The notes under the pieces are model-generated. The model ran no database searches. It was not told the origin of the DNA and worked only from the letters and a program-made list of their open reading frames with translations. A program made the position numbers and the translations under genes. From Candidatus Sigynarchaeum calidifontis (lineage in GTDB: Archaea; Asgardarchaeota; Lokiarchaeia; Sigyniarchaeales; Sigyniarchaeaceae), in assembly GCA_030587475.2 (NCBI GenBank), contig JAUQYZ020000174.1, positions 1 to 13,700 of the forward strand: a stretch of DNA of 13,700 nt. Direction: 5' to 3'. Positions 1 to 13,700 of this stretch are shown piece after piece (position 1 is the stretch's first letter; the number at the start of each line of letters is the position of its first letter).

Positions 1-436
1 CCTCCTTCACGCCCAATTTGATGTAACCCGGTATTTTTTTGGTCAGGTCATCCTCGTGATTGGACGGGGACAAAATCTCGAAAACGACGGTCGCCGGTCC
101 ATCCAGATAAGTCTCTTTTAAACGATCAGCCATCCCTCTTTCGATAAACATGATATCCGGTTCCGGTGCCAACGAATCTGAAAGTCGCATGGTGAAGCGA
201 GACCCGACAACGATGCCTAACCCATTTTGCTGGGTGTAGAGATCGAGGATGTTCAAGATGAACTTGAAGATCAATTCGTGTTCAAGTGATGCGGGAGAAT
301 GGATAACTAACACCCCGTCGATGAGTTCACAGTCGATGTCTTCGTCAGCATATTCCATGTAACGAGAGAAATTGAAACCGGGAATATATACCGTGAAAGG
401 TTCGGGGAGAGGTTTGTTGTTGTAGGTTATCACCAT
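1..436 (-). CDS. Uma2/DUF820 family PD-(D/E)XK putative endonuclease, 3'-truncated by window edge
   Basis: Not in the ORF track because it has no stop inside the window. Manual translation from ATG at 436: MVITYNNKPLPEPFTVYIPGFNFSRYMEYADEDIDCELIDGVLVIHSPASLEHELIFKFILNILDLYTQQNGLGIVVGSRFTMRLSDSLAPEPDIMFIERGMADRLKETYLDGPATVVFEILSPSNHEDDLTKKIPGYIKLGVKE. It shows the family motifs ELIDG..SP...H, PEPD and EILSPS..D...K...Y...GV.E. Confidence 0.9.
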   Translation of the reverse strand, partial: MVITYNNKPLPEPFTVYIPGFNFSRYMEYADEDIDCELIDGVLVIHSPASLEHELIFKFILNILDLYTQQNGLGIVVGSRFTMRLSDSLAPEPDIMFIERGMADRLKETYLDGPATVVFEILSPSNHEDDLTKKIPGYIKLGVKE

Positions 437-3214: not shown

Positions 3215-3925
3215 ATGTTTCCCAGATTACAGCGCGTGGTCACCGACACGGCACAGATAGCCGAGAAAAAGTTCCTGGTCAAGAAGCTCAAGCTCGTGGT
3301 CGACCGGGATCGCTGCATCAACTGTGCGACATGCATGCTATCTTGCCCGAATGAAGTCATCAAGGCGGGCGCGCCGTGGCACACGACCTCGGTCACCCTC
3401 GATCCAGAGAAATGTTCCTACTGCGGGGTCTGCCAATACATGTGCCCGACCCGCGCGATCCAGCTCTACATTGATGACGAGCCCGTGAAGAACGAGGACC
3501 TCGTTCTCGTGCAGAAAAAGGCCTTGCCCGAGCTCATCGGCCCGGAAGTGGTTTGCACGAACAAGCCGGCCGGGAAGGATGGCAAGCCGATCATGGCCAA
3601 GCATTACATGGACGGCCACCTTAAATACGACAAGACCATCTGCCAGACCGGCTGCCGGACATGCACGGTCACGTGTCCCACGAAGGCCCTCTACTTCCGC
3701 AGGGGAAAGGCGTGGGAAGCAGGCGAGGTCATGGAGTTCGACCGCACGAAATGTATATACTGCGGTGGCTGCGCGTTCGTGTGCCCCGTTGCCGCCATCG
3801 ACATCGAACGCACAGCGGTCAACCACGGCAAGGAATTCAACGACCCGTTCTGGCCGAAACTCAAGCAGCGCCTCATGGATTTCCGGTCGTTCGTCAAGAA
3901 GGACCAACAACAGCGGAAAGCTTGA
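3215..3925 (+). CDS. fwdF: 4x[4Fe-4S] polyferredoxin, FwdF/FmdF-like (copy 1)
   Basis: Four cluster motifs: CINCATCMLSCP, CSYCGVCQYMCP, CQTGCRTCTVTCP, CIYCGGCAFVCP. The MFP...KKFL...L..D..C N-terminus and 'LYIDDE...P.L' resemble FwdF/FmdF. It is paralogous to 4613-5299, which abuts fwdC. The symbol is tentative. Confidence 0.75.
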   Translation: MFPRLQRVVTDTAQIAEKKFLVKKLKLVVDRDRCINCATCMLSCPNEVIKAGAPWHTTSVTLDPEKCSYCGVCQYMCPTRAIQLYIDDEPVKNEDLVLVQKKALPELIGPEVVCTNKPAGKDGKPIMAKHYMDGHLKYDKTICQTGCRTCTVTCPTKALYFRRGKAWEAGEVMEFDRTKCIYCGGCAFVCPVAAIDIERTAVNHGKEFNDPFWPKLKQRLMDFRSFVKKDQQQRKA

Positions 3926-3995
3926 ATGTATCTTGAATTTTCATTCTCGTGTAAGATATCGGGATTTCTTTTATTCGGGACGAAGATACGATGGC

Positions 3996-4010
3996 ATAAA
4001 ACTTAATAAA
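3996..4010 (+). promoter_or_regulatory. Putative BRE/TATA promoter of hicB (likely leaderless transcript)
   Basis: A-rich ATAAAAC followed by TTAATAAA (4003-4010), 22 nt before ATG 4033, consistent with archaeal TATA-to-start spacing. Confidence 0.5.
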
Positions 4011-4032
4011 CGCTTTTTGGTATGAAACGTCC

Positions 4033-4272
4033 ATGAGCCGAAAAATTTACGATTATAAAGTATTCTTAGAAAAAGACCCGGACGGGGGATACGTCGTCGT
4101 TTGCCCTTCGTTTCAAGGCTGTTATAGTGAAGGTGACACGGTCGAGGAGGCCCTAGAGAACATCAAGGAAGCGATCGAGCTTTGCATAGAAGATCTGGTA
4201 AAATCCGGTGAGCCTATTCCTGAACCAAGCCATACCTTCATTGGAAACGTGGTCATTGTCCATGACACCTAA
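4033..4272 (+). CDS. hicB: HicB family antitoxin (short form without DNA-binding domain)
   Basis: YKVFLEKDPDGGYVVVCPSFQGCYSEGDTVEEALENIKEAIELCIE..GEPIP is the classic HicB/UPF0150 N-terminal domain. It overlaps hicA by 11 nt. Confidence 0.92.
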   Translation: MSRKIYDYKVFLEKDPDGGYVVVCPSFQGCYSEGDTVEEALENIKEAIELCIEDLVKSGEPIPEPSHTFIGNVVIVHDT

Positions 4273-4492
4273 ATTGCCGCCGGTTTCTGGCGACCAGGCA
4301 ATCAAAGTGTTCTTAAAATTGGGATATGAAACAGTGCACCAGAAAGGGAGCCACGTTCGCTTGAAGCATCCATCGGATGTCCAACGACGGCCACTCACGG
4401 TTCCATTACACAAGGAGTTGAAGATCGGACTGCTTCGGAGATTGTTGAACGACGCGAACCTATCACACGACGAGTTTCTTGGATTGCTTTAA
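4262..4492 (+). CDS. hicA: HicA family mRNA interferase toxin
   Basis: Start reassigned to ATG 4262: MTPKLPPVSGDQAIKVFLKLGYETVHQKGSHVRLKH...TVPLHKELKIGLLRRLL..ANLS.DEF. It has the HicA GSH catalytic-His motif and VP.H..L..G.L motif. Confidence 0.92.
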   Translation: MTPKLPPVSGDQAIKVFLKLGYETVHQKGSHVRLKHPSDVQRRPLTVPLHKELKIGLLRRLLNDANLSHDEFLGLL

Positions 4493-4612
4493 GACTTTCC
4501 GAACAGAATGTCTCCGACCCCGGGTATTGCCCTCATGACTGATAGAATCCCGAATAAAGGTACAAAAACTCTCCCGCGTAAGTATCCATATTACTTTCGA
4601 GATCGATCGAAC

Positions 4613-5299
4613 ATGTTCCCACGCCTTGACCACCAGATCTCCGGCGACAAGCAAGTAGCGACAAAGAAGTTTCTCGTGCGCAACGTGCGGCTCGAACTGG
4701 ACAAGGATAATTGCAGGAATTGCGGCACGTGCTTGAATGCGTGCCCGAACGATGTCATCAAGAAAGGTGCCCCCGGTGCTTCTGTCAAGAAGCCGGGCAA
4801 GAACCAGATCATGGCCGGCGTCATGCTCGATCCCCGCAAGTGCTCGTATTGCGGCGTGTGTTCCTACTTGTGCCCCTACGATGCGCTGCACCTCTACATC
4901 GACGGTGAGAAGGTCGCCCCGGCGGGCCTCCAGCTCGTCCAGAAGGAGGCGCTGCCCAAGCTGGTCGTGAAAGAAGTGGCACTCAAGGATGGCAAGAAAG
5001 GGCGGCACTTCATGGACGGCCACCTCGAGTACGCAGAAGAGGCGTGCATGTCCGGCTGCCGAACGTGCGTCGAGATCTGCCCCACGGGTGCCTTGAAATT
5101 CGAGAAAAAGGTGGGCTGGGAAAAGGAAAAATTTGTCATCGACCGTGACAAGTGCATCTACTGCGGCGGTTGCGCGTTCTCTTGCCCGACCGGCGCGATC
5201 AAGATCTTCAGGGAGAAGATCAACCACGAGGGCAAGTTCCAAGACCCGTTCTGGCCCAACATCGTGAAGCGGCTCGTTGACTACCACGGCAAGCAATGA
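4613..5299 (+). CDS. fwdF: 4x[4Fe-4S] polyferredoxin, FwdF/FmdF-like (copy 2)
   Basis: Start reassigned to ATG 4613 (MFPRL, identical to the start of copy 1). Motifs CRNCGTCLNACP, CSYCGVCSYLCP, CMSGCRTCVEICP, CIYCGGCAFSCP. Directly upstream of fwdC. The symbol is tentative. Confidence 0.78.
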   Translation: MFPRLDHQISGDKQVATKKFLVRNVRLELDKDNCRNCGTCLNACPNDVIKKGAPGASVKKPGKNQIMAGVMLDPRKCSYCGVCSYLCPYDALHLYIDGEKVAPAGLQLVQKEALPKLVVKEVALKDGKKGRHFMDGHLEYAEEACMSGCRTCVEICPTGALKFEKKVGWEKEKFVIDRDKCIYCGGCAFSCPTGAIKIFREKINHEGKFQDPFWPNIVKRLVDYHGKQ

Positions 5300-5328
5300 C
5301 TGCGCGATCCTCTGACATGGTGATTTCG

Positions 5329-6291
5329 ATGGTCGAAACGATAACGTTCAAGCTCAAGAAAACGACAGAATTGCCGCTGGAGGTCGAGGCCATCTGCCCC
5401 GACAAGCTCGCGGGAAAGAAAAACGACGAGATCAAGAAGATGCTCGCTTACGAGGGCAAGGCCACGCACGAGCTCGGCTCGGTTTTCGATATTTCCGGGA
5501 AAGCCGGTGAGAAGGCTGCCGACACGAAGGTCGTCGTGCAAGGATCGACCATGAAACTGCGGCGCATCGGCGAGGCCATGACCGCGGGCGAGGTCGAGAT
5601 CTTCGGCGACGCGGGCATGCACGTGGGCGACATGATGAAGGGCGGCAAGATCGTCGTCCACGGCAACGCGGATCACTACGCGGCCAGCATGATGGAGGGC
5701 GGCGAGCTCTGGATCGAGGGCAATGCAGGCGATTACCTCGGCGCCGCGTATCGCGGCGAGTGGCGCGGCATGAAAGGCGGTAAAATCTTCGTCGACGGCA
5801 ATGCCGGCTTCGAGATCGGCGCGTGGATGCGCGGTACCAAGGCGTCGCAAGACAAGGGCGAGCCGCTCATCCACGTGAAAGGCAATGTCCAGCTCCACGC
5901 CGGGCACCACAACCACGGCGGCTTCATGATCATCGAGGGCGACGCGGAAGGAAACGTGGGCAGCGAGATGGGCCGGGGCGAGATCATCGTGCTCGGCAAG
6001 ACCGAGCCGCTCGCGTCGTTCAGCAAGGATGCCGTGGAGGCTCCTGAGCTCGCCGCGCTGAAGATAAAAGGGCCATTCGTCACGTTCACGGGCGACAACG
6101 CCATCGGCGGCAAGGGCAAGCTCTACTTGAAAGCGCCGGGCGCGAAGGCCATCACGATCGACCGGAAAGCCCTTTGCGCGATCAAGCCCGCTCCTGCCGA
6201 GACAAAACCCGCGGCATCCGCGGCGAAACCAGGAGAAAGCCCCGTTTCCAAGGAAAAAGCCATCGCGGAGAAGAAGCCCGGGAAGAAATGA
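5329..6291 (+). CDS. fwdC: Formylmethanofuran dehydrogenase subunit C (GXGXG beta-helix) with Lys/Ala/Pro-rich C-terminal tail
   Basis: ITFKLK...LPLEVEAICPD..AG N-terminus, repeated G..G...G..M.GG.I.V.GNA units and the hallmark GAAYRGEWRGMKGG. Start ATG 5329 is preceded by SD-like GGTGA (5319-5323); alternative starts are 5296 and 5317. Confidence 0.93.
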   Translation: MVETITFKLKKTTELPLEVEAICPDKLAGKKNDEIKKMLAYEGKATHELGSVFDISGKAGEKAADTKVVVQGSTMKLRRIGEAMTAGEVEIFGDAGMHVGDMMKGGKIVVHGNADHYAASMMEGGELWIEGNAGDYLGAAYRGEWRGMKGGKIFVDGNAGFEIGAWMRGTKASQDKGEPLIHVKGNVQLHAGHHNHGGFMIIEGDAEGNVGSEMGRGEIIVLGKTEPLASFSKDAVEAPELAALKIKGPFVTFTGDNAIGGKGKLYLKAPGAKAITIDRKALCAIKPAPAETKPAASAAKPGESPVSKEKAIAEKKPGKK

Positions 6292-6683: not shown

Positions 6684-9542
6684 ATGGTCAAGTACATCAA
6701 GGATTTTTTCCCCGTGTACCGCGAGAAGGGCGTCTATTCGGGCAACCCCCGTGATCTCAACGCCGAGTTTAACGAGTACGTGGAGCCGGACCCGGACAAC
6801 CCCGAGGCGTGGCTCAAGGAGGAACGCTTCGAGGACGATTTCAAGAAGCACCTCGCAGAAAAATGGGCCCTGAACTGGAAGGGCATCGATTTTTCCAAGC
6901 ACAAGTACTACGTCTGCGGCCAGAGCCACATCGATGTCGCGTGGTTGTGGCGGTACTGGCAGACTTGCCGCAAGGCCATCGTGACCTTCAAGAAGGCGGT
7001 CTGGCACGCCAAGAACGTCCCGAACTACGCGTTCGCCGCGTCCGAGCCCGTCTTGCTCGAATGGATCCTTCACGAGGACCCGAAACTCTTCGAGGACATC
7101 AAGGAACAGGTCAAGGCGGGGCGGTTCGATCTCGTCGGCGGCATGTGGGTCGAGCCCGACTGCCACCTGCCGAGCGGCGAGGCGTTCTGCCGTCAGCGGC
7201 TCTACGGCCAGCGATTCTACCTCGAGCACTTCGGCCGGCTCTCGCTCGTCGAGTGGGTGCCGGACAGCTTCGGGTTTGCAAGCACGCTGCCCCAGATACT
7301 CGCGAAGAGCGGCTCTCCTTACTTCCACACGACCAAGCTGTGCGGAAACTCGTACTCGCAGTTCCCGTTCGTGAATTTCTTGTGGGAATCGCCCGACGGG
7401 TCGCAGGTCCTCGCGAACCTCAGCCCCGGCGGGTTCGGGGCAATGAGCCGCCACGACAGGTTCGATCCCGTGCGGCGCTTGCTCAAGCCCGGGGTGACAT
7501 TCCGGGCGGATTACACGGTCGATAAGCCGGAGGCCGCCGACGTGTATTCCGACGAGATCCCGCCGATCGGCATGTTCGTCGGCAAGGGCGATGGCGGCCA
7601 TGGCCCCACCGGCGAGGAAGTCGCCGTGCTCGAACACCTCGTGGCCGAAGGCAAGGCCGAATGGATGAATGTCACGAACTATTTTTCCAAGGTGCTCGAT
7701 AAGACGAGGAGCCGCTTGCCCGTTTGGGCGGACGAGCTCTATTACGAGTACCACCGCGGCACGCTCACGACCCACGCGCTCGTCAAGCGCATGAACCGGT
7801 ACTTCGAGTGGCACCTCGGCGCCGTGGAGAAGCTCGTCGCGGCGGCCGGCGCCATGAAAGGAGCCGACACGGCAAAATGGTCAAGCCAGCTCCGGGTCGC
7901 GTGGAAGCTGCTCATGCTCAACCAGTTCCACGACGTGCTCCCGGGCTCCAGCATCCCGGAAGTGTACGATGATGTCTACGATTTATGGGAGTACCAGAAA
8001 ACCCTCGTCGATGAAGTCGAGAAGGAAGCATGGACGGCGCTGCTCGGCAAGATTCCAAGTACCACGGCTTCCGAAGCGGGCACGATCGTGTTCAACGCGT
8101 CCGGCCACGACGTCAAGGACGTGCTGGTCGAAATAACCTTCGACGGCAAGGTCGTCCCGAAGGTGGCCAATGTTAATGGCGAATTCGTGCCCGTGCAACT
8201 CGTCGAAGCGGATACCTTCAATCTCGATCCGCTCTTCGTCAAGCGACCCCGCCGGCTGCTCTTCAAGGTCTCGGTACCACAGCACGCGTTTAGCCAGGTC
8301 ATTTATGATAATGAAACTGGGGCCACGAAAGCTAAGACCTGCAAAGCCGAGGATACCGGCGAGGAAATCGTGCTCGAAAATGACCTGCATGCCGTGAAGG
8401 TTAGCAAGAAAACCGGCGACATCACGTCCATCACGGATAAAAAGCTCGGGAAGGAGATACTCGCGGCCCCGGGCGTCCAGCTCCACCTATACTTCGACTG
8501 GCACATGACCGAACAAGCTTGGAACATCTCGCCAGGGTACCGGGCCATGCCCATCCCGATCCCGCCGCCATCGCGCGTTTCCATCATGGAAAACGGGCCG
8601 GTGCGCTGGACCGTGGAAATCGAACGCGAAGCATTTAACGAAGACAGTGAATCGAAGGAGAACGGCATTTCGAAGATCTTCCAGCGCATTTCCCTCATCC
8701 AGGGTGCCCCTGGCGTTTACATGGAATTTCTGCTCGACTGGCACACGTGCGAGTGCATCGCCAAGCTCGATTTCTACATGGCATCCATGGGCGAGCAGGT
8801 CGTGTCAGAGGTTCCCTACGGCACGATCAAGCGGCTCGCCAATCCCAAGGCCAACCACGATGTGCCCCGGTGGGAGCAATATCACCAGACATGGGTGGAC
8901 ATTCCCTCGAAAGACCAGAAATGGGGCGTCGCGTTCGTCAACAACGGCCGATATGGCCACGACACGAAGGATAACCGTTTCGGCTTGACGCTCGTTCGCG
9001 GGCCGCTCTGCCCGAAACCCTCGGGAGAATCGTGGGTGAACAAGGAACGTGCCGACCGGTTCAAGGCCACGGGCGAGATCCCGCCGGCGCACGACGACCT
9101 CGCGTGCCACTTGTTCAAGTTCATCGTCGTGCCGCACGAGGGCACCTTCGACAAGTCGAAGCCATTCATCCCGGCCATCGCCCACTGGTTCAACGAGGGT
9201 TACGTGGCTTGCCCGGTGCTTGCCGGCGCCACGCTCGACGTTGTTGGCCAGCGGCTCGCGTGGATCGAGGGCACCAACGCCGAGATCGGTACCATCAAGG
9301 ACGCGGAGGACAAGAACGGGCGTGTCGTGCGAGTGGTGGAAACCGCCGCCGCTGGAGGCAAGGTCACGTTACGGCTACATTCCTCATTAAAAGCCAAGTC
9401 GGTTGTCGAGACGGACATCCTGGAACGTCCTATTTTCTCCACGTTCTTGACCACGGAGAACGACTCGACTGGTTTCATCGCGTCCGTGTCATTCACGGCC
9501 AAGCCGCACGAGATCAAGACATTGCTCCTCAAGAGCAGGTAG
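6684..9542 (+). CDS. Glycoside hydrolase family 38 alpha-mannosidase (cytosolic Ams1/Man2C1/MngB-like)
   Basis: Zn-binding SHIDVAWLW, GGMWVEPDCHLPSGEAFCRQRLYGQ, nucleophile motif W.PDSFG, GDGGHGPT, ELYYEYHRGTLTT, LNQFHDVLPGSSIPEVY, C-terminal PHEIKT. No signal peptide is apparent. Confidence 0.96.
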   Translation: MVKYIKDFFPVYREKGVYSGNPRDLNAEFNEYVEPDPDNPEAWLKEERFEDDFKKHLAEKWALNWKGIDFSKHKYYVCGQSHIDVAWLWRYWQTCRKAIVTFKKAVWHAKNVPNYAFAASEPVLLEWILHEDPKLFEDIKEQVKAGRFDLVGGMWVEPDCHLPSGEAFCRQRLYGQRFYLEHFGRLSLVEWVPDSFGFASTLPQILAKSGSPYFHTTKLCGNSYSQFPFVNFLWESPDGSQVLANLSPGGFGAMSRHDRFDPVRRLLKPGVTFRADYTVDKPEAADVYSDEIPPIGMFVGKGDGGHGPTGEEVAVLEHLVAEGKAEWMNVTNYFSKVLDKTRSRLPVWADELYYEYHRGTLTTHALVKRMNRYFEWHLGAVEKLVAAAGAMKGADTAKWSSQLRVAWKLLMLNQFHDVLPGSSIPEVYDDVYDLWEYQKTLVDEVEKEAWTALLGKIPSTTASEAGTIVFNASGHDVKDVLVEITFDGKVVPKVANVNGEFVPVQLVEADTFNLDPLFVKRPRRLLFKVSVPQHAFSQVIYDNETGATKAKTCKAEDTGEEIVLENDLHAVKVSKKTGDITSITDKKLGKEILAAPGVQLHLYFDWHMTEQAWNISPGYRAMPIPIPPPSRVSIMENGPVRWTVEIEREAFNEDSESKENGISKIFQRISLIQGAPGVYMEFLLDWHTCECIAKLDFYMASMGEQVVSEVPYGTIKRLANPKANHDVPRWEQYHQTWVDIPSKDQKWGVAFVNNGRYGHDTKDNRFGLTLVRGPLCPKPSGESWVNKERADRFKATGEIPPAHDDLACHLFKFIVVPHEGTFDKSKPFIPAIAHWFNEGYVACPVLAGATLDVVGQRLAWIEGTNAEIGTIKDAEDKNGRVVRVVETAAAGGKVTLRLHSSLKAKSVVETDILERPIFSTFLTTENDSTGFIASVSFTAKPHEIKTLLLKSR

Positions 9543-9680: not shown

Positions 9681-12600
9681 TTAGAAATTCACGAGCTTGC
9701 GCCGGATCTCGCCGATTTTCTCGTTGATCTTGTCGAGGGCCTCCTCGAACTTGACCCGGTACTGCTCGTATTCCTCGTCGGTCAGGATGCCCTTTTCTTT
9801 CTTGGCCTTGAGGTCACGGAGCGAGCGCTGCGCCTTGTATTTCTTTTGCTCCATCTTGACCAGCTCCCCGTACAAGCCCTCCTGGCCCTCGCCAGTGGAC
9901 ACGAGCGCACCGGGCTTGGCCGGTAACGGCTTTGCAGCGGGTTTTGGCAAGGCAGCGATCGACACGGGCTTCGCGAGACCTGGTGCCTCGCCCGGTGCCG
10001 GAACCGCGGGGATCGAAGGCGTGCCAGGGGGAATAACGCCTGGCGCGGCTGGCTTCGGGGGCATGATAACAGGGGCGGGTTTCTCGGGCTCGACATACTC
10101 GGCCTTGGGCGGGCCAGTGGTGATCTTCTTCGGCCCTTCCTTGGGGAATATGGCAGGGGCGACGTGCTTGACCTCGACAACTTTCTCCTTGACCGCGAGG
10201 TCGAAATCCTTGGCAAGCGTGTCCTTCGCGGCGGGCGGCACGTATCCCTTCTGCTTGGTCTTCTTTGCCAGCGCGGCGATGCTCTTGGAATGCGTCTGCA
10301 AGAAGCTATACTCGTTGAGCAACTTGGCGAACTCGTTGTAGATTCCCTCTTCGCGCGATGCGACTTTTTGCACCGAGATCTTCGCCGCGGGCTTGCCTTG
10401 CCGAACCGCCCTGGAGAGATCATGGATCTTGCGGATAATCGGCGGGTACTTGAAACGAACCTGGTAGAGCACGAAGTAGACGACCACGACCACGAGCGCT
10501 GCAAGTATCAAGTAAAACACCCATTCCGGAATGGCGCTACCCTGGTAGGCTTTTGTCTGGATCGTGTACTCATAGTTATTCTGGATGTCGAACTGGCGCT
10601 TGACCTCCGGATCCGCGAAAAAGACGCTGATGGTGACCGTATAAGTAGCACCGAATCCCTGGGGGATACCGATGCTGTACCGCCACGTCCCGTTGCCAAT
10701 ATAATTCATTTGTTTGTTGTAAATCTTTAGCGTGGGGCTCGAGATGTTAACGATGAGGGTATTCGCGATTCCATCGATTATTCCAATGCCCGTGGAAGTG
10801 TCGAATAGTTGGAAATCAAGACGCAGCGTGGATTGCGGGTCGACATTCGTGATCACGCTTTGCACGGGATTTTCCGGCGTCTGGTTCTGGTGGGGTACAA
10901 CCACTACAGGCTTTATCTGCAACACCGGGGCCGCTCTCCCGAGCGTGTAATTCGCACGATATGCTTGCACGATGAAAAACTTTGGCTCGGCGTAGAACGT
11001 GTTGAGATCCAGCGTGATCGTCGTGCGATACACGCCACCAGCGAACGTCAACGTGCGGTTCAGCGTGGTCCCGGTCTTGTCGTTCGTGTACGTGACCGTC
11101 ACCAGGGCATTCTGCACGGGGAGGCCATCCGTCGCTCGGGAATAATTCACCGTGATGGTAACCACCTCTTTCAACGAGATCGCCAAAAATGGTTGACCGT
11201 TGAAGAGCACGGTCATCGTCGTCGGTACTTCCAAAATATGTACCGTGATCGTGAAGCTCGCGGCGGCATAGTTCAGCTTGCTCGCGGTCAGGGTTATCCG
11301 ATAGATGCCCGGCGTGCCGATCGACGACGTGCTGAAGACCAGTATGTAATCGGTCCCGTTGAAGATGCTCGACGCTGCAGGATAATTTGCAACGAGCGTG
11401 CCGTTGATGAGTACATCGTTGTGTGTATCGTTGTATTTCACGGCCAAGGAGAAGTTTTGCCCCCAGACGTACTGCGTAACGTTCTGGAACATTGCAGGGA
11501 CGATCAATTCGGTCGGGAGATCGAGGACTTGCAAGTTGAAGCTGAATGCCGCTTGCGAATAATTGATCCACGATGCCGATATGATTACCTGGGGCGTTGA
11601 CCCGGCGAGTAGGCCGGCGATAGTACTCGTGTTGATGTCGATCAACCACAACCCGCCGCCGATGTTCGTCGCCGGGATCGTAACGCCGAACACCACGGCC
11701 CTGATCGTCGGTCCATTCGAGGATATGTTTTGACCGGTGATGATGTTTTGGTACGTTGCAAAAAGCCGAAGCGTGTCACCATAGTAAACGCGCGACGTGT
11801 CGCCATTGTTAAGATATGCGGTGCTGTTTTGCACGTAGAGCTTCGTCGGGACTTCGAGCACGATCAAGTTAAAGCGGAACTCGGAACCCGTGTAGTTCTG
11901 CATGTTGCCGGTCACGATGATCGTGTGCGTGTTCCCACCGCGGAGGAGGCTCGAGTTTATGAAGAGCTCGTAGTAGGCGAAGACCGTGGGCGTTCCATCG
12001 TCCACATATGTCGGATCAACGCCGTATGTTGCTTTAATGGATGCGGGGTTGCTATACGTGCCTACCTTCACGCCATCGAGCGTGTTCATGAAGTATACTC
12101 GCATGGTTAGGCCCGCTGACCAGTTGAGGGTCACTGAGCTCGTGATCGGCTCGAAAAGGCCCGAAGAGTTCTGCCATTGAACGGACAGGGTCGTCGGCAC
12201 CTCACGAATGGCCAAGTTGAACGAGAACGTTGCCGTCGTGTAGTTGACATACGAAGCGGAGACAATCACTTGCGGGGTCGAGCCGGCAGACGCGGGGATG
12301 ACAAAAGAGTCGAAAAACAGCGACCATTTACCACTGCCAGCCCATATACCCGTGATCGTGTATCCGTAAATGCGTGCCGTTACTGACACGCCAGCCAGGT
12401 TCGTGATATTGGCGGAGTTCAACGTGTCCGTGTAAACTGCACTTAGGGTAAAGTTTTTCGTGTAATACACCTGCAACGTACTCCCCGCGATAACCGGGAC
12501 ACTACCATTCATGACCGTGATGGAAGTGGGTACACTCTTCACCTCGAGGTTGATCGAACTGCCGCTGGGGTAGAAGAACCCGGCCTCGCCAGCAAGCGTG

Positions 12601-13700
12601 ATGTAGTTCGACGTGCCAACGTCAAGGTCAATCAATGTCGTGTTGAACACGAATATCGCCGTCCCGTTAGGGAGAATACTGGCGGGCGAATAGGTGCGTC
12701 CCTTCAGCGTTGCGGTGTAGGTCAGGCTCGGGTACTGGGTCTTCGAGATGAAGGTAGTTCCCATCAGGTCATAGAGCGCGCAGTAGATCGTGAAGGTTTC
12801 CGTGTAATTGACCGTGAATTTCTGGCCAGCGAACACGGTTCTTTCAAACGTGATGGTATCGGACACGTTCAACCGGGTCTGCAGCTTCAACGGGTACACG
12901 TAGAACGGCTCGCTCAGCAAGGTGAAATTCTGCCGGAAGATCGTTACTACAAGAGAGTACTGGCTGAAATCGCCGAGCTGTGTCGTCGTGTTGAGCGTGA
13001 GGAGATACTGTCCATTGCCCGCGTTGACGATGGTCGCGTTCACGGAGCCATAATTATACCATGTAGAGCTACCTTCGATAAATCGCATGTAAACGCTTGC
13101 TCCATCAACACGGCTCCCCGTCAACGTTGAATATGTAAATCTTACCGTGAAGTTGTTATTGAAATTCACGAAATACTGCCGAGATGCCGTGATGTTGACG
13201 AACGCCGGGGCAGCGGTCGAGCTCATCTCGATGGACAATCGTGTCTGCAAGTTCACGACCTGGATGGTCACGAGCAAGGATTCAGTCGTGTGATTCGCGA
13301 GCATCGCGACGAACGTTACCGAAAAGATGCCGGTCCCGCCAAACCTGCTGGAATTCACGCTGATCGAGATGTTCTCGCCGGCGCCACCGAAGATGATCGT
13401 ACCGGGGAAGGTGGTAGAGATGTTCCCGCTCGGTCGCAAGGCAATCGAAGGCATCGAGACCAGGTGGTAGCGAACCGTGAACGAGAGGACCTTGTTCCAC
13501 TCGATCGAGAATTGGGAATTCAACGGGCCGTTCAAATTGTACGCGTCGAGCTTCATGGGCACTTGTAACACTTCAAGGGTCACTGACGCGACGCTCGTGA
13601 CGTAGTTGGCACGGCTTGCCGTGAAAGTCAGGCTATAGATGCCAGACTGCCCGACAGAAACCGTGTTGATGGTCAACTCGTATTTTCCGCTCGCCGGATT
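9681..13700 (-). CDS. Very large single-pass cell-surface protein with tandem Ig-like beta-sandwich repeats, a TM helix and a long cytoplasmic tail; 5'-truncated by window edge
   Basis: The frame stays open to 13700 (NPASGKYELTINT...), so the TTG at 13676 is internal. About nine complete and one partial ~100-120 aa beta-rich repeats end in 'A...NY....F...V..VPT.L'. More than 30 N-x-S/T sequons by eye. TM WVFYLILAALVVVVVYFVLY (10464-10523), then a 260-aa tail. Confidence 0.9.
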   Translation of the reverse strand, partial: NPASGKYELTINTVSVGQSGIYSLTFTASRANYVTSVASVTLEVLQVPMKLDAYNLNGPLNSQFSIEWNKVLSFTVRYHLVSMPSIALRPSGNISTTFPGTIIFGGAGENISISVNSSRFGGTGIFSVTFVAMLANHTTESLLVTIQVVNLQTRLSIEMSSTAAPAFVNITASRQYFVNFNNNFTVRFTYSTLTGSRVDGASVYMRFIEGSSTWYNYGSVNATIVNAGNGQYLLTLNTTTQLGDFSQYSLVVTIFRQNFTLLSEPFYVYPLKLQTRLNVSDTITFERTVFAGQKFTVNYTETFTIYCALYDLMGTTFISKTQYPSLTYTATLKGRTYSPASILPNGTAIFVFNTTLIDLDVGTSNYITLAGEAGFFYPSGSSINLEVKSVPTSITVMNGSVPVIAGSTLQVYYTKNFTLSAVYTDTLNSANITNLAGVSVTARIYGYTITGIWAGSGKWSLFFDSFVIPASAGSTPQVIVSASYVNYTTATFSFNLAIREVPTTLSVQWQNSSGLFEPITSSVTLNWSAGLTMRVYFMNTLDGVKVGTYSNPASIKATYGVDPTYVDDGTPTVFAYYELFINSSLLRGGNTHTIIVTGNMQNYTGSEFRFNLIVLEVPTKLYVQNSTAYLNNGDTSRVYYGDTLRLFATYQNIITGQNISSNGPTIRAVVFGVTIPATNIGGGLWLIDINTSTIAGLLAGSTPQVIISASWINYSQAAFSFNLQVLDLPTELIVPAMFQNVTQYVWGQNFSLAVKYNDTHNDVLINGTLVANYPAASSIFNGTDYILVFSTSSIGTPGIYRITLTASKLNYAAASFTITVHILEVPTTMTVLFNGQPFLAISLKEVVTITVNYSRATDGLPVQNALVTVTYTNDKTGTTLNRTLTFAGGVYRTTITLDLNTFYAEPKFFIVQAYRANYTLGRAAPVLQIKPVVVVPHQNQTPENPVQSVITNVDPQSTLRLDFQLFDTSTGIGIIDGIANTLIVNISSPTLKIYNKQMNYIGNGTWRYSIGIPQGFGATYTVTISVFFADPEVKRQFDIQNNYEYTIQTKAYQGSAIPEWVFYLILAALVVVVVYFVLYQVRFKYPPIIRKIHDLSRAVRQGKPAAKISVQKVASREEGIYNEFAKLLNEYSFLQTHSKSIAALAKKTKQKGYVPPAAKDTLAKDFDLAVKEKVVEVKHVAPAIFPKEGPKKITTGPPKAEYVEPEKPAPVIMPPKPAAPGVIPPGTPSIPAVPAPGEAPGLAKPVSIAALPKPAAKPLPAKPGALVSTGEGQEGLYGELVKMEQKKYKAQRSLRDLKAKKEKGILTDEEYEQYRVKFEEALDKINEKIGEIRRKLVNF

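Follow-up and report, generated by a model that had tools for sequence, protein, structure and literature searches.

What would a giant surface protein of a Loki/Sigyn-type Asgard archaeon do with a 260-aa tail on the inner side of its membrane? Among known prokaryotes, Asgard archaea are the most closely related to eukaryotes, and an earlier note on this DNA took the tail to be a handle for intracellular partners. Our literature search found no description of Asgard surface proteins with cytoplasmic tails, nor of the KYPP-tailed ones described below. We analysed the window (the whole stretch of DNA, 13,700 nucleotides) and propose that the handle is probably the last 66 residues of the protein, a helical hairpin that resembles the steadiness box (SB) of ESCRT-I and CdvA.

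The gene and its ectodomain

The reading frame, on the - strand, ends with a stop codon at 9681-9683 and is open to the contig end, and all of the peptide strings that were quoted in the earlier note lie in this frame (Table 1). The gene is 5'-truncated because the 13.7-kb window is the entire contig. An orthologue in the same genus has an open frame of 4388 aa and a tail that is 81% identical, and the alignment of the 1339-aa fragment with P0026 (4376 aa) runs from end to end. Two further paralogues are encoded in the same genome (C53 and C63), and the terminal hairpins of all three are near-identical. In the window, the gene lies beside redox genes and the gene for a GH38 mannosidase. Neither the whole protein nor the tail alone had an above-threshold match when scanned against Pfam and NCBIfam.

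Table 1. Features of the surface protein gene, with residues counted from the start of the fragment.
Feature	Residues	Positions	Strand	Basis or remark
Partial gene, giant type I surface glycoprotein		9681..13700	-	1339 codons + stop; 5' end missing
Ectodomain fragment	1-1059	10524..13700	-	Beta-rich, sequon-rich
Single transmembrane (TM) helix	1060-1079	10464..10523	-	Kyte-Doolittle + AF2
Predicted cytoplasmic tail, 260 aa		9684..10463	-	After the TM helix; three parts
Module A, juxtamembrane helical module	1079-1170	10191..10466	-	Invariant columns in 14 tails
KYPP core, Y-Q-x-R-F-K-Y-P-P-x-I-R-K-I	1079-1103	10392-10466	-	Followed by R-E-E helix
Pro/Ala/Lys-rich linker, predicted disordered	1171-1273	9882..10190	-	pLDDT <50
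Linker motif, S-I-x-A-L-P-K-P	1246-1256	9933-9965	-	Conserved short motif
Module C, antiparallel helical hairpin	1274-1339	9684..9881	-	AF2; SB/CdvA-like
SHOCT-like turn within the hairpin	1294-1313	9762..9821	-	Sub-threshold Pfam SHOCT match

Topology

Just one Kyte-Doolittle window in the 1339 aa exceeds 1.6, and it is the TM helix, which AF2 (run on an alignment of 14 tails) predicts with a pLDDT of 80-93. The interval that had been singled out earlier, 9681-10523, corresponds to this helix (10464-10523) plus the 260-aa tail (9684-10463). Four lines of evidence support a cytoplasmic location for the tail. In keeping with the positive-inside rule, there is one lysine or arginine in the 15 aa that precede the helix, as against 4 in the 15 aa and 8 in the 30 aa that follow it. 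The ectodomain fragment contains 36 N-x-S/T sequons (3.4 per 100 aa) and the tail contains none; the homologues have the same contrast (2.1-4.5 per 100 aa in the ectodomain versus 0-0.7 in the tail). Full-length homologues begin with N-terminal signal or anchor segments. Finally, the hairpin is also carried by proteins that have no TM helix and are predicted to be cytoplasmic, as discussed below. These observations bear out the earlier proposal that the tail lies inside the cell.

Anatomy and conservation of the tail

With the alignment of 14 tails, AF2 predicts juxtamembrane helices (pLDDT 55-77), a linker (below 50), and a two-helix hairpin (about 90). This modular anatomy is conserved beyond chance: a database search with the tail, which the earlier note had suggested, identified 12 homologues (E from 1e-41 to 1e-116) in addition to the two paralogues, and 47 columns are invariant across the 14 aligned tails. 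As internal repeats of the ectodomain blur any comparison of its identity with that of the tail, we go no further than to say that conservation is highest in modules A and C.

The helix next to the membrane, which had been described as a basic juxtamembrane helix, is present, but that description understates it: it is part of a conserved module of about 90 aa (module A) that includes a KYPP core found across the order. An HMM for module A matches the three paralogues and one fragment in this genome and nothing else. Many of the order's surface proteins also have the KYPP core itself, and the protein has the full pattern of this group: its ectodomain is rich in sequons, its only TM helix is C-terminal, and its juxtamembrane core fits Y-Q-x-x-[FLY]-[KR]-[YF]-P-[PK]-x-[IV]-R. 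It shares the TM helix and the Y-Q-x-x-F-K-Y-P-P-x-V-R-K-I core with the KYPP-tailed surface proteins of Loki-type Asgard archaea. However, those proteins have short basic tails and a separate adaptor gene that adjoins them, whereas in this tail the core is followed by a linker and the SB-like hairpin. The linker is about 105 aa long and is 23-24% proline. Thirty homologous linkers are 64-154 aa long with a median of 24% proline, and the ALPKP motif is present in 14 of the 30.

The helices of module C span residues ~1273-1302 and ~1308-1338 and are joined by a turn at K-G-I-L-T. When the hairpin was folded alone with AF2, the pLDDT was 88.7, with helices at 12-41 and 47-77 of the construct. 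So, the C-terminus is a helical hairpin as the earlier note had it, although its two helices form an antiparallel hairpin rather than a coiled-coil. (A MIM-like motif for Vps4 was also considered in the hairpin and was dropped, as no match to the MIM1 pattern was seen by eye.)

A search of 1.84 billion representatives with the hairpin profile returned only 168 clusters, which are Asgard-type and nearly all of which have the hairpin at the extreme C-terminus. Of 155 carriers examined, 30 combine the hairpin with a TM helix and module A, while about 120 lack a TM helix and have unrelated N-termini; a Ras-GTPase/LRR/TPR protein with no TM helix is also a carrier. From these sequences, the hairpin is a small and distinct C-terminal module of Asgard archaea, and most of its carriers are predicted to be soluble cytoplasmic proteins. 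(Two hairpin proteins of the soluble group that we term class 2 are encoded on contigs of only 3-4 kb.) The fusion of the hairpin to a surface protein occurs in all four genomes of this archaeon's family, versus none of the 37 others in the order.

The hairpin is related to that of a predicted ESCRT-I component

The hairpin has a strong sequence link to Znr_CC_PH_SB (cog.011556), a predicted ESCRT-I component that is annotated with an SB (PMC10936438). When module C was aligned with hhalign to the C-terminal hairpin of Znr_CC_PH_SB (28 homologues), the result was 97.8% with E = 7e-13, and 65-66 columns were in register. As controls, 15 column shuffles scored at most 12.4 (all below 1%), and the reversed alignment scored 22.8. 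The plain hairpin profile matches the C-termini of Znr_CC_PH_SB proteins from at least 20 genomes (E from 1e-8 to 1e-5). Reciprocally, the module C proteins are the next-best matches to the Znr HMM in this genome, and both HMMs match the 411-aa Znr_CC_PH_SB of a distant family (1e-12 and 3e-11). These profile comparisons argue strongly that the two hairpins are homologous. Both lie near the C-terminus and contain L-E-x-x-x-Y ... L-x-x-K-x-x-x-G-x-I-S-x-x-x-Y. The proteins otherwise differ: Znr_CC_PH_SB is soluble and single-copy, with zinc ribbons, a coiled coil, and a PH domain, whereas the surface protein bears its hairpin on the proline-rich tether of a giant glycosylated transmembrane protein. 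Znr_CC_PH_SB is found in 37 of the 41 genomes of the order. In this genome its gene lies at C207:23862-25946, ~4.5 kb from a Snf7 gene; EAP30 is encoded at C70:878-1546, and a free ORF of 73 aa at C76:1525-1743 is SB-like. A complex prediction for the tail hairpin and the Znr_CC_PH_SB hairpin of this genome scored 0.21 (mark 0.32) in a run without controls, which weighs neither for nor against binding.

Links to the ESCRT-I steadiness box and CdvA

Via the Znr hairpin and the Asgard Vps28, the sequence similarity extends to the SB of ESCRT-I (Vps23/TSG101, the N-terminus of Vps28, and Vps37). The top match of the Znr hairpin profile in the PDB is yeast Vps23 in ESCRT-I (2p22, E = 1.2e-4; also 2f66, 2caz, and TSG101 in 6vme), although designed coiled coils score near Vps23 in the same search, which indicates some coiled-coil noise at that E range. 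Against the N-terminal hairpin of Asgard Vps28, hhalign gave 93.5% for the Znr hairpin and only 67.7% for module C. In a direct comparison, the hairpin family had no significant sequence match to eukaryotic SBs.

For module C itself, the two best matches in the PDB are both CdvA (9s9i, E = 6e-4; 9s9g, E = 4e-3). These appeared only with the deeper module C profile; an earlier profile of 13 sequences had no significant match to PDB sequences. Also, 40 of 138 members of the hairpin family have weak matches to the Pfam CdvA family (PF18822). The study that described SB/CdvA-like hairpins assigned them by HHpred against PF18822 and PF03997 (PMC10936438), and two marks of its class are found here: an antiparallel hairpin of ~55-70 aa and profile similarity to an accepted hairpin.

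Structure comparisons agree with this assignment but discriminate poorly. The hairpin superposes on 2f6m_C, 6vme_B, and 9s9i_B with an rmsd of 0.7-0.9 A, which is unspecific for a simple hairpin, and a Foldseek search of the PDB had no match at E <= 1e-3, with generic hairpins such as hantavirus N and the seryl-tRNA synthetase arm outranking the ESCRT-I chains. Over the ESCRT-I SBs, which are likewise antiparallel hairpins of ~60 aa, the rmsd was 0.7-1.4 A, and CdvA, besides being the best PDB sequence match, gave a Foldseek TMq of 0.80 and an rmsd of 0.9 A. What surrounds the hairpin is different in each case. TSG101/Vps23 resembles the tail in having a proline-rich region and then a C-terminal hairpin, but the UEV domain and the stalk are missing from the tail and Vps23_core is unmatched. 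Likewise, the filament-forming CdvA is built from a PRC domain, a three-helix coiled coil, and an E3B peptide, all of which are missing here.

The surface protein does not qualify as a subunit of ESCRT-I proper (Vps23, Vps37, or Vps28), as it has neither a Pfam match nor an ESCRT neighbourhood. Pfam Vps23_core and VPS28 had no match in the protein or in the genome (which is 89% complete). Pfam UEV also had no match in the genome, but a control search was likewise blank, so this result is uninformative. No ESCRT genes lie beside the carriers of the tail hairpin, whether in the window, near the C53 and C63 paralogues, near the class 2 gene at C204:25556-27709, or near the class 2 genes of three distant genomes.

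A proposed role for the tail

We propose, with a probability of roughly 0.55, that the tail presents a tethered hairpin for docking to other SB hairpins, which would couple the surface protein to ESCRT-type machinery. The tail would have two handles. Just under the membrane is the KYPP helical module, which would be the anchor signature of the order's surface proteins, and beyond it a flexible proline-rich linker of ~105 aa would present the 66-aa hairpin at the extreme C-terminus. Hairpins of the SB/CdvA-like class assemble the headpiece of ESCRT-I in both eukaryotes and Asgard archaea, and they polymerise CdvA. Assembly of Asgard SB proteins has been observed in vitro and by yeast two-hybrid (PMC9192718), and SB-fusion proteins have been proposed to bind ESCRT-I SB motifs (PMC10936438). 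We infer that the hairpin docks on other SB-bearing proteins by hairpin-to-hairpin packing. Candidate partners are Znr_CC_PH_SB, the soluble class 2 hairpin protein, which is widespread, and, in genomes that have them, Vps28 or Vps22. In the cell, the protein might then be sorted, clustered, or budded off in vesicles by an ESCRT-type route that needs no ubiquitin tag. The earlier idea that the tail is a handle for intracellular partners is plausible for a conserved and modular cytoplasmic tail, and the suggested connection to ESCRT is supported by way of the SB/CdvA-like hairpin, not by the route originally envisaged, which was the binding of proline motifs.

A bolder version of this proposal is that the surface glycoprotein has an ESCRT-I-type subunit of its own, namely a proline-rich tether and an SB hairpin in the layout of TSG101. 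It would nucleate ESCRT-I/II/III directly under itself and so sort itself into vesicles or protrusions without ubiquitin. We consider this quite unlikely.

Alternative explanations

The earlier note saw in the hairpin a SHOCT-type oligomerisation motif, which together with a linker full of PxxP motifs might recruit profilin/actin or other binders of proline motifs. Indeed, SHOCT (PF09851) is the best single Pfam match of the protein (E from 5.6e-5 to 1.4e-3), and hhalign of the hairpin against seven true SHOCT domains from relatives gave 82% over 27 columns. Both have a G-I-[TS]-x-E-E-[YF] turn between two helices at the C-terminus. However, the likeness is limited to this turn: in the Pfam check, the match covers positions 3-22 of the 28 in the profile (20/28) and scores 18.7-24.6 bits, below the gathering threshold of 27, while the scores of true SHOCT domains from related genomes are 27.8-46.5 bits, and just 27 of 138 members of the hairpin family have even weak matches. 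SHOCT is 28 aa long with helices of ~12 aa, versus 66 aa and ~30 aa here. The hairpin family is distinct, and the search of 1.84 billion representatives yielded the 168 Asgard-type proteins instead of thousands of bacterial SHOCT proteins. Oligomerisation of SHOCT has itself been tested, and none was found (PMC3581485). As for the linker, it is proline-rich as claimed and there are seven PxxP motifs, but that is about what its composition predicts (~5.7 at 23% proline). The longest proline run is 2 (3 across the 30 homologous linkers), and P[ST]AP is absent from this linker, although it is present in 9 of the 30. The case for profilin/actin recruitment is weak on these grounds, and we find this combination of SHOCT and proline motifs very improbable.

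The hairpin might instead be a self-association element and nothing else, one that dimerises the surface proteins or bundles them, as clusters or as a lattice, so that its likeness to ESCRT-I and CdvA would reflect ancestry without common partners. The polymerisation of CdvA is driven by coiled-coil contacts (PMC12818579), Odin Vps23 dimerises (PMC9192718), and the near-identical hairpins of the three paralogues and the lack of ESCRT gene context around the carriers would fit as well. But the hairpin shows strong homology to an SB that belongs to a predicted ESCRT-I component, and because the hairpin is present on soluble and unrelated proteins (including the GTPase/LRR/TPR protein), a common docking site fits better than clustering at the surface; we therefore regard pure self-association as unlikely. 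The KYPP module could also be the main handle: a longin/winged-helix adaptor would grip it, accompanied by a TrmB-coiled-coil protein, and the linker and hairpin would be a lineage-specific accessory. Surface proteins throughout the order conserve the core of this module, and in two relatives the KYPP genes adjoin genes for the adaptor (375-424 aa) and the TrmB-coiled-coil protein. This genome has two longin-like adaptor homologues, at C106:37899-39170 and C192:42984-44330, and a TrmB-coiled-coil gene directly follows the C63 paralogue. Yet all of the complete KYPP proteins of this genome (3/3) also carry the linker and hairpin, no part of the tail is better conserved than the hairpin, and the adaptor gene is absent from the window, in which the upstream side of the gene ends at the contig end. 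This explanation is possible if somewhat doubtful, and it is compatible with a docking role for the hairpin.

Implications

We know of no ESCRT-0 in Asgard archaea, where SB-fusion proteins have only been catalogued. An SB-type hairpin on surface glycoproteins would tie the cell surface to ESCRT-type assembly through a physical link that can be tested. The analysis delimits a 66-aa domain, and its candidate soluble partner family spans several Asgard families. If the tail were in fact a built-in ESCRT-I-type subunit, it would be an archaeal precedent for recruitment of ESCRT that is encoded in the cargo, comparable to viral late domains or to syndecan-syntenin-ALIX. And if the hairpin merely clusters surface proteins, it would still be a new conserved C-terminal module of Asgard archaea, with its SHOCT label corrected.

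Gene and full-length relatives

The window makes up one complete contig of 13.7 kb. The surface-protein gene is truncated in the present assembly, and the sequence strings that the earlier note had quoted were all found in its minus-strand frame (9681-13700). An orthologue from the same genus has an open frame of 4388 aa and a tail that is 81% identical to the window's, and a metagenomic homologue of 4376 aa aligns end to end with the 1339-residue fragment. The source genome, an Asgard bin of ~5 Mb (completeness 89%), encodes two more full paralogues with the same tail, on contigs C53 (1422 aa) and C63 (2591 aa). The nearest database homologues are labeled Sigynarchaeota, Lokiarchaeota or Promethearchaeota.

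The stop codons of the surface-protein gene and of a GH38 alpha-mannosidase gene are 138 bp apart. It is conceivable that the mannosidase is tied to N-glycan turnover of the sequon-rich surface protein. The 427-aa ORF of the window has no Pfam match.

Features of the window and of related loci (C-numbers are contigs of the source genome and L-numbers are extracted loci)
Feature	Location	Strand	Description
Surface-protein gene	window 9681-13700	-	Frame open up to the contig end; last 1339 residues of a far larger protein
Module A	residues 1079-1170		Invariant Y-Q-x-R-F-K-Y-P ... R-K-I-x-D core, R-E-E-x-I helix and F-L-x-T motif
Module C	residues 1274-1339		Best-conserved part of the tail, mean column identity 64%
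GH38 alpha-mannosidase	window 6684-9542	+	Complete; 952 aa with four Pfam domains; transcribed toward the surface-protein gene (convergent)
Remaining contig	window 2-436; 642-1109; 3215-6291; 4033-4272; 1636-2919	-; +; +; +; -	Listed as Uma2-family endonuclease fragment; FlpD/MvhD-like protein; two poly-ferredoxins then GXGXG-motif protein; HicB-like antitoxin; 427-aa ORF
TrmB-winged-helix and coiled-coil protein	C63:20519-23236	-	Directly after the C63 paralogue
Two homologues of the ~375-aa KYPP-flanking adaptor	C106:37899-39170; C192:42984-44330	+; +	Elsewhere in the source genome
Znr_CC_PH_SB homologue	C207:23862-25946; L027:4479-5321	-; -	695-aa open frame; zinc ribbons, PH-like middle, terminal hairpin
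Class 2 protein	C204:25556-27709; L028:8557-10689	-; 	710-717 aa; small N-terminal helical domain, long Pro/Lys-rich disordered region, same C-terminal hairpin
Surface protein with SB-like hairpin	C97:65025-66866	+	614 aa; signal anchor, sequon-bearing ectodomain, TM helix, cytoplasmic coiled coil ending in the hairpin
73-aa ORF resembling an SB-type hairpin	C76:1525-1743	-	Znr-hairpin HMM E 0.014; top-ranked match of the Vps28-N HMM, E 0.28

Topology and anatomy of the tail

The sole strongly hydrophobic window in the fragment is at residues 1054-1084, and we take residues 1060-1079 as the putative TM helix. N-x-S/T sequons are frequent before this helix (36 in 1059 residues, or 3.4 per 100 aa) and absent from the 260 residues after it; in the database homologues, the corresponding densities are 2.1-4.5 versus 0-0.7 per 100 aa. 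Positive charge is concentrated on the C-terminal side of the helix, with 8 K/R in the next 30 residues versus 1 in the preceding 15. Full-length homologues begin with a signal or anchor segment, and the terminal module is also found on TM-less proteins with typical cytoplasmic domains. On these grounds, the 260-residue tail lies inside the cell, as the earlier note had proposed, and not outside, the placement that would have refuted that note.

AF2 modeling from an alignment of 14 tails gave a TM helix with good confidence, three short helices next to the membrane with modest confidence (pLDDT 55-77), ~105 disordered residues (pLDDT below 50), and an antiparallel two-helix hairpin (pLDDT about 90). 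Conservation divides the tail into the same three parts: a juxtamembrane KYPP module (module A), a proline-rich linker, and the C-terminal hairpin (module C). Modeled alone from 138 sequences, the hairpin reached a pLDDT of 88.7, with helices at positions 12-41 and 47-77. Both the hairpin and the proline-rich character of the linker are kept among homologues: across 30 of them, linker length ranges from 64 to 154 aa, with proline steady at about 24%.

The earlier note had suggested that a PxxP-rich linker might recruit profilin/actin or ESCRT-type Pro-rich binders. The window's linker has 7 PxxP motifs versus roughly 5.7 expected at 23% proline, and the longest proline run in any linker is 3. 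Nine of 30 linkers contain a P[ST]AP motif; this one does not. These observations argue against the linker as a profilin, formin-type or late-domain recruiter. It resembles a flexible tether bearing a single candidate short linear motif, S-[IL]-x-A-L-P-K-P, which is present in 14 of the 30 homologous linkers.

Module A may be a second handle on the tail. Its KYPP core is common to many surface proteins of the order, whose tails are short and basic. All three complete KYPP proteins of the source genome carry the hairpin extension. In two relatives, KYPP genes adjoin an adaptor gene (375-424 aa) and a TrmB-coiled-coil gene. The TrmB-coiled-coil protein on C63 matches the one beside a relative's KYPP surface proteins (E 2e-78).

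Homology of the hairpin

The earlier note had also read the hairpin as SHOCT-like. SHOCT is the only Pfam family that matches the surface protein, but at 18.7-23.2 bits, under the cut-off of 27, so we do not regard module C as a member. In related genomes, genuine SHOCT domains reach 28-46 bits versus 19-25 bits for module C, and the resemblance is confined to the turn (27 columns, 82%), which may reflect either remote kinship or convergence.

A closer match is to Znr_CC_PH_SB. The protein on C207 fits the description of asCOG cog.011556 in architecture and size; the C-terminus of this family is annotated as a steadiness box (SB), and the protein was called a likely ESCRT-I component (Makarova et al. 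2024, PMC10936438). With hhalign, 138 module C sequences aligned to 26-28 Znr hairpins with 97.8% probability (E 7e-13, 65-66 columns), and their conserved Gly turns line up; 15 column-shuffled controls scored 12.4 or less and a reversed alignment scored 22.8. The plain module C profile matches Znr_CC_PH_SB C-termini in at least 20 genomes (E 1e-8 to 1e-5). Conversely, an HMM built solely from Znr hairpins ranks the module C proteins of the source genome straight after Znr_CC_PH_SB itself, and both HMMs match a 411-aa Znr_CC_PH_SB of a distant family.

Among PDB sequences, the Znr hairpin profile best matches Vps23 of the yeast ESCRT-I core (2p22, E 1.2e-4; 2f66; 2caz), followed by TSG101 and VPS37B. 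It also aligns with the hairpin at the Vps28 N-terminus, represented by 14 Asgard sequences (93.5%). The best PDB matches of module C are two CdvA entries (E 6e-4 and 4e-3), and 40 of the 138 module C members have weak Pfam CdvA matches. Similarity to CdvA and Vps28-N is the criterion that defines SB-like hairpins in Makarova et al. (PMC10936438). By sequence-profile criteria, then, module C belongs to the SB/CdvA-like hairpin class. In structural superposition, the hairpin model fits both CdvA and chains of the ESCRT-I headpiece with rmsd values of 0.7-1.4 A. Simple hairpins are prone to false matches in such comparisons, however: other hairpins superpose equally well, and Foldseek with the module C model returned nothing at E 1e-3 or better. 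The fold is thus compatible with the class and not diagnostic of it.

Carriers of the hairpin

When 1.84 billion representatives were searched with the hairpin profile, only 168 proteins passed E 1e-3, of which 127 also passed 1e-10; nearly all of the 168 have the hairpin at the extreme C-terminus. Of the 155 carriers examined, 30 have both a TM helix and module A (class 1, with a maximum length of 4376 aa). Another ~120 carriers, 200-770 aa long, lack a TM helix (class 2). In the order, 39 of 41 genomes have class 2 at ~1 copy each, and in distant Asgard families it recurs as proteins of 213-322 aa. The class 2 protein on C204 has no TM helix and no Pfam family. The fused class 1 architecture was found in 4/4 genomes of this archaeon's family versus 0/37 others among the 41 sampled. 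P0014, a metagenomic protein of 1598 aa, combines a Ras-like GTPase with LRR and TPR regions and terminates with a proline-rich segment and a hairpin that is 67% identical to the window's. The hairpin is therefore a portable C-terminal module on signaling-type proteins. By eye, P0014 also appears to have a TIR-type region.

ESCRT genes in the source genome

The source genome encodes Snf7, an EAP30 (Vps22-like) protein, and Znr_CC_PH_SB. The gene for the latter is about 4.5 kb from a Snf7 (ESCRT-III) gene, and the interval encodes a 1295-aa TPR protein. Pfam Vps28 and Vps23-core had no match in this 89% complete genome; UEV had none either, and neither did the control search for it. Vps28 (PF03997) was found in 0/4 genomes of this archaeon's family versus 8/13 and 13/13 in two sister families. 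Two further SB-like hairpins are encoded: the C97 surface protein (Znr-hairpin HMM, E 7.5e-3) lacks the proline-rich linker and the KYPP motif, and the 73-aa ORF on C76 is a candidate free-standing steadiness-box protein.

Could the surface protein be an ESCRT-I subunit proper? We rejected this because neither Vps23_core nor VPS28 matches it and because no ESCRT genes lie beside the hairpin carriers in the window, at the C53 and C63 paralogues, at the C204 class 2 gene, or at class 2 genes in three distant genomes.

A proposed tether with a docking hairpin

Asgard SB-fusion proteins have already been published, and were proposed to bind ESCRT-I SB motifs (Makarova et al. 2024, PMC10936438). 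Giant type I surface glycoproteins with a terminal SB-like hairpin do not appear in the literature that we searched on Asgard surface proteins with cytoplasmic tails.

The headpiece of ESCRT-I is built by SB hairpins packing together. Vps23 and Vps28 of Odin associate stably, and yeast two-hybrid assays point to a possible interaction of Vps28 with the free-standing SB proteins of Loki and Thor (PMC9192718). CdvA polymerization is driven by coiled-coil contacts (PMC12818579). Because the hairpin is an assembly surface in both of these characterized relatives, we propose that the tail is most likely a tether that would present an SB-type docking hairpin, ~105 disordered residues below the membrane. 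We infer both the binding and its cellular outcome. The likely docking partners would be Znr_CC_PH_SB, the protein of class 2 or, in genomes that have them, Vps28/Vps22.
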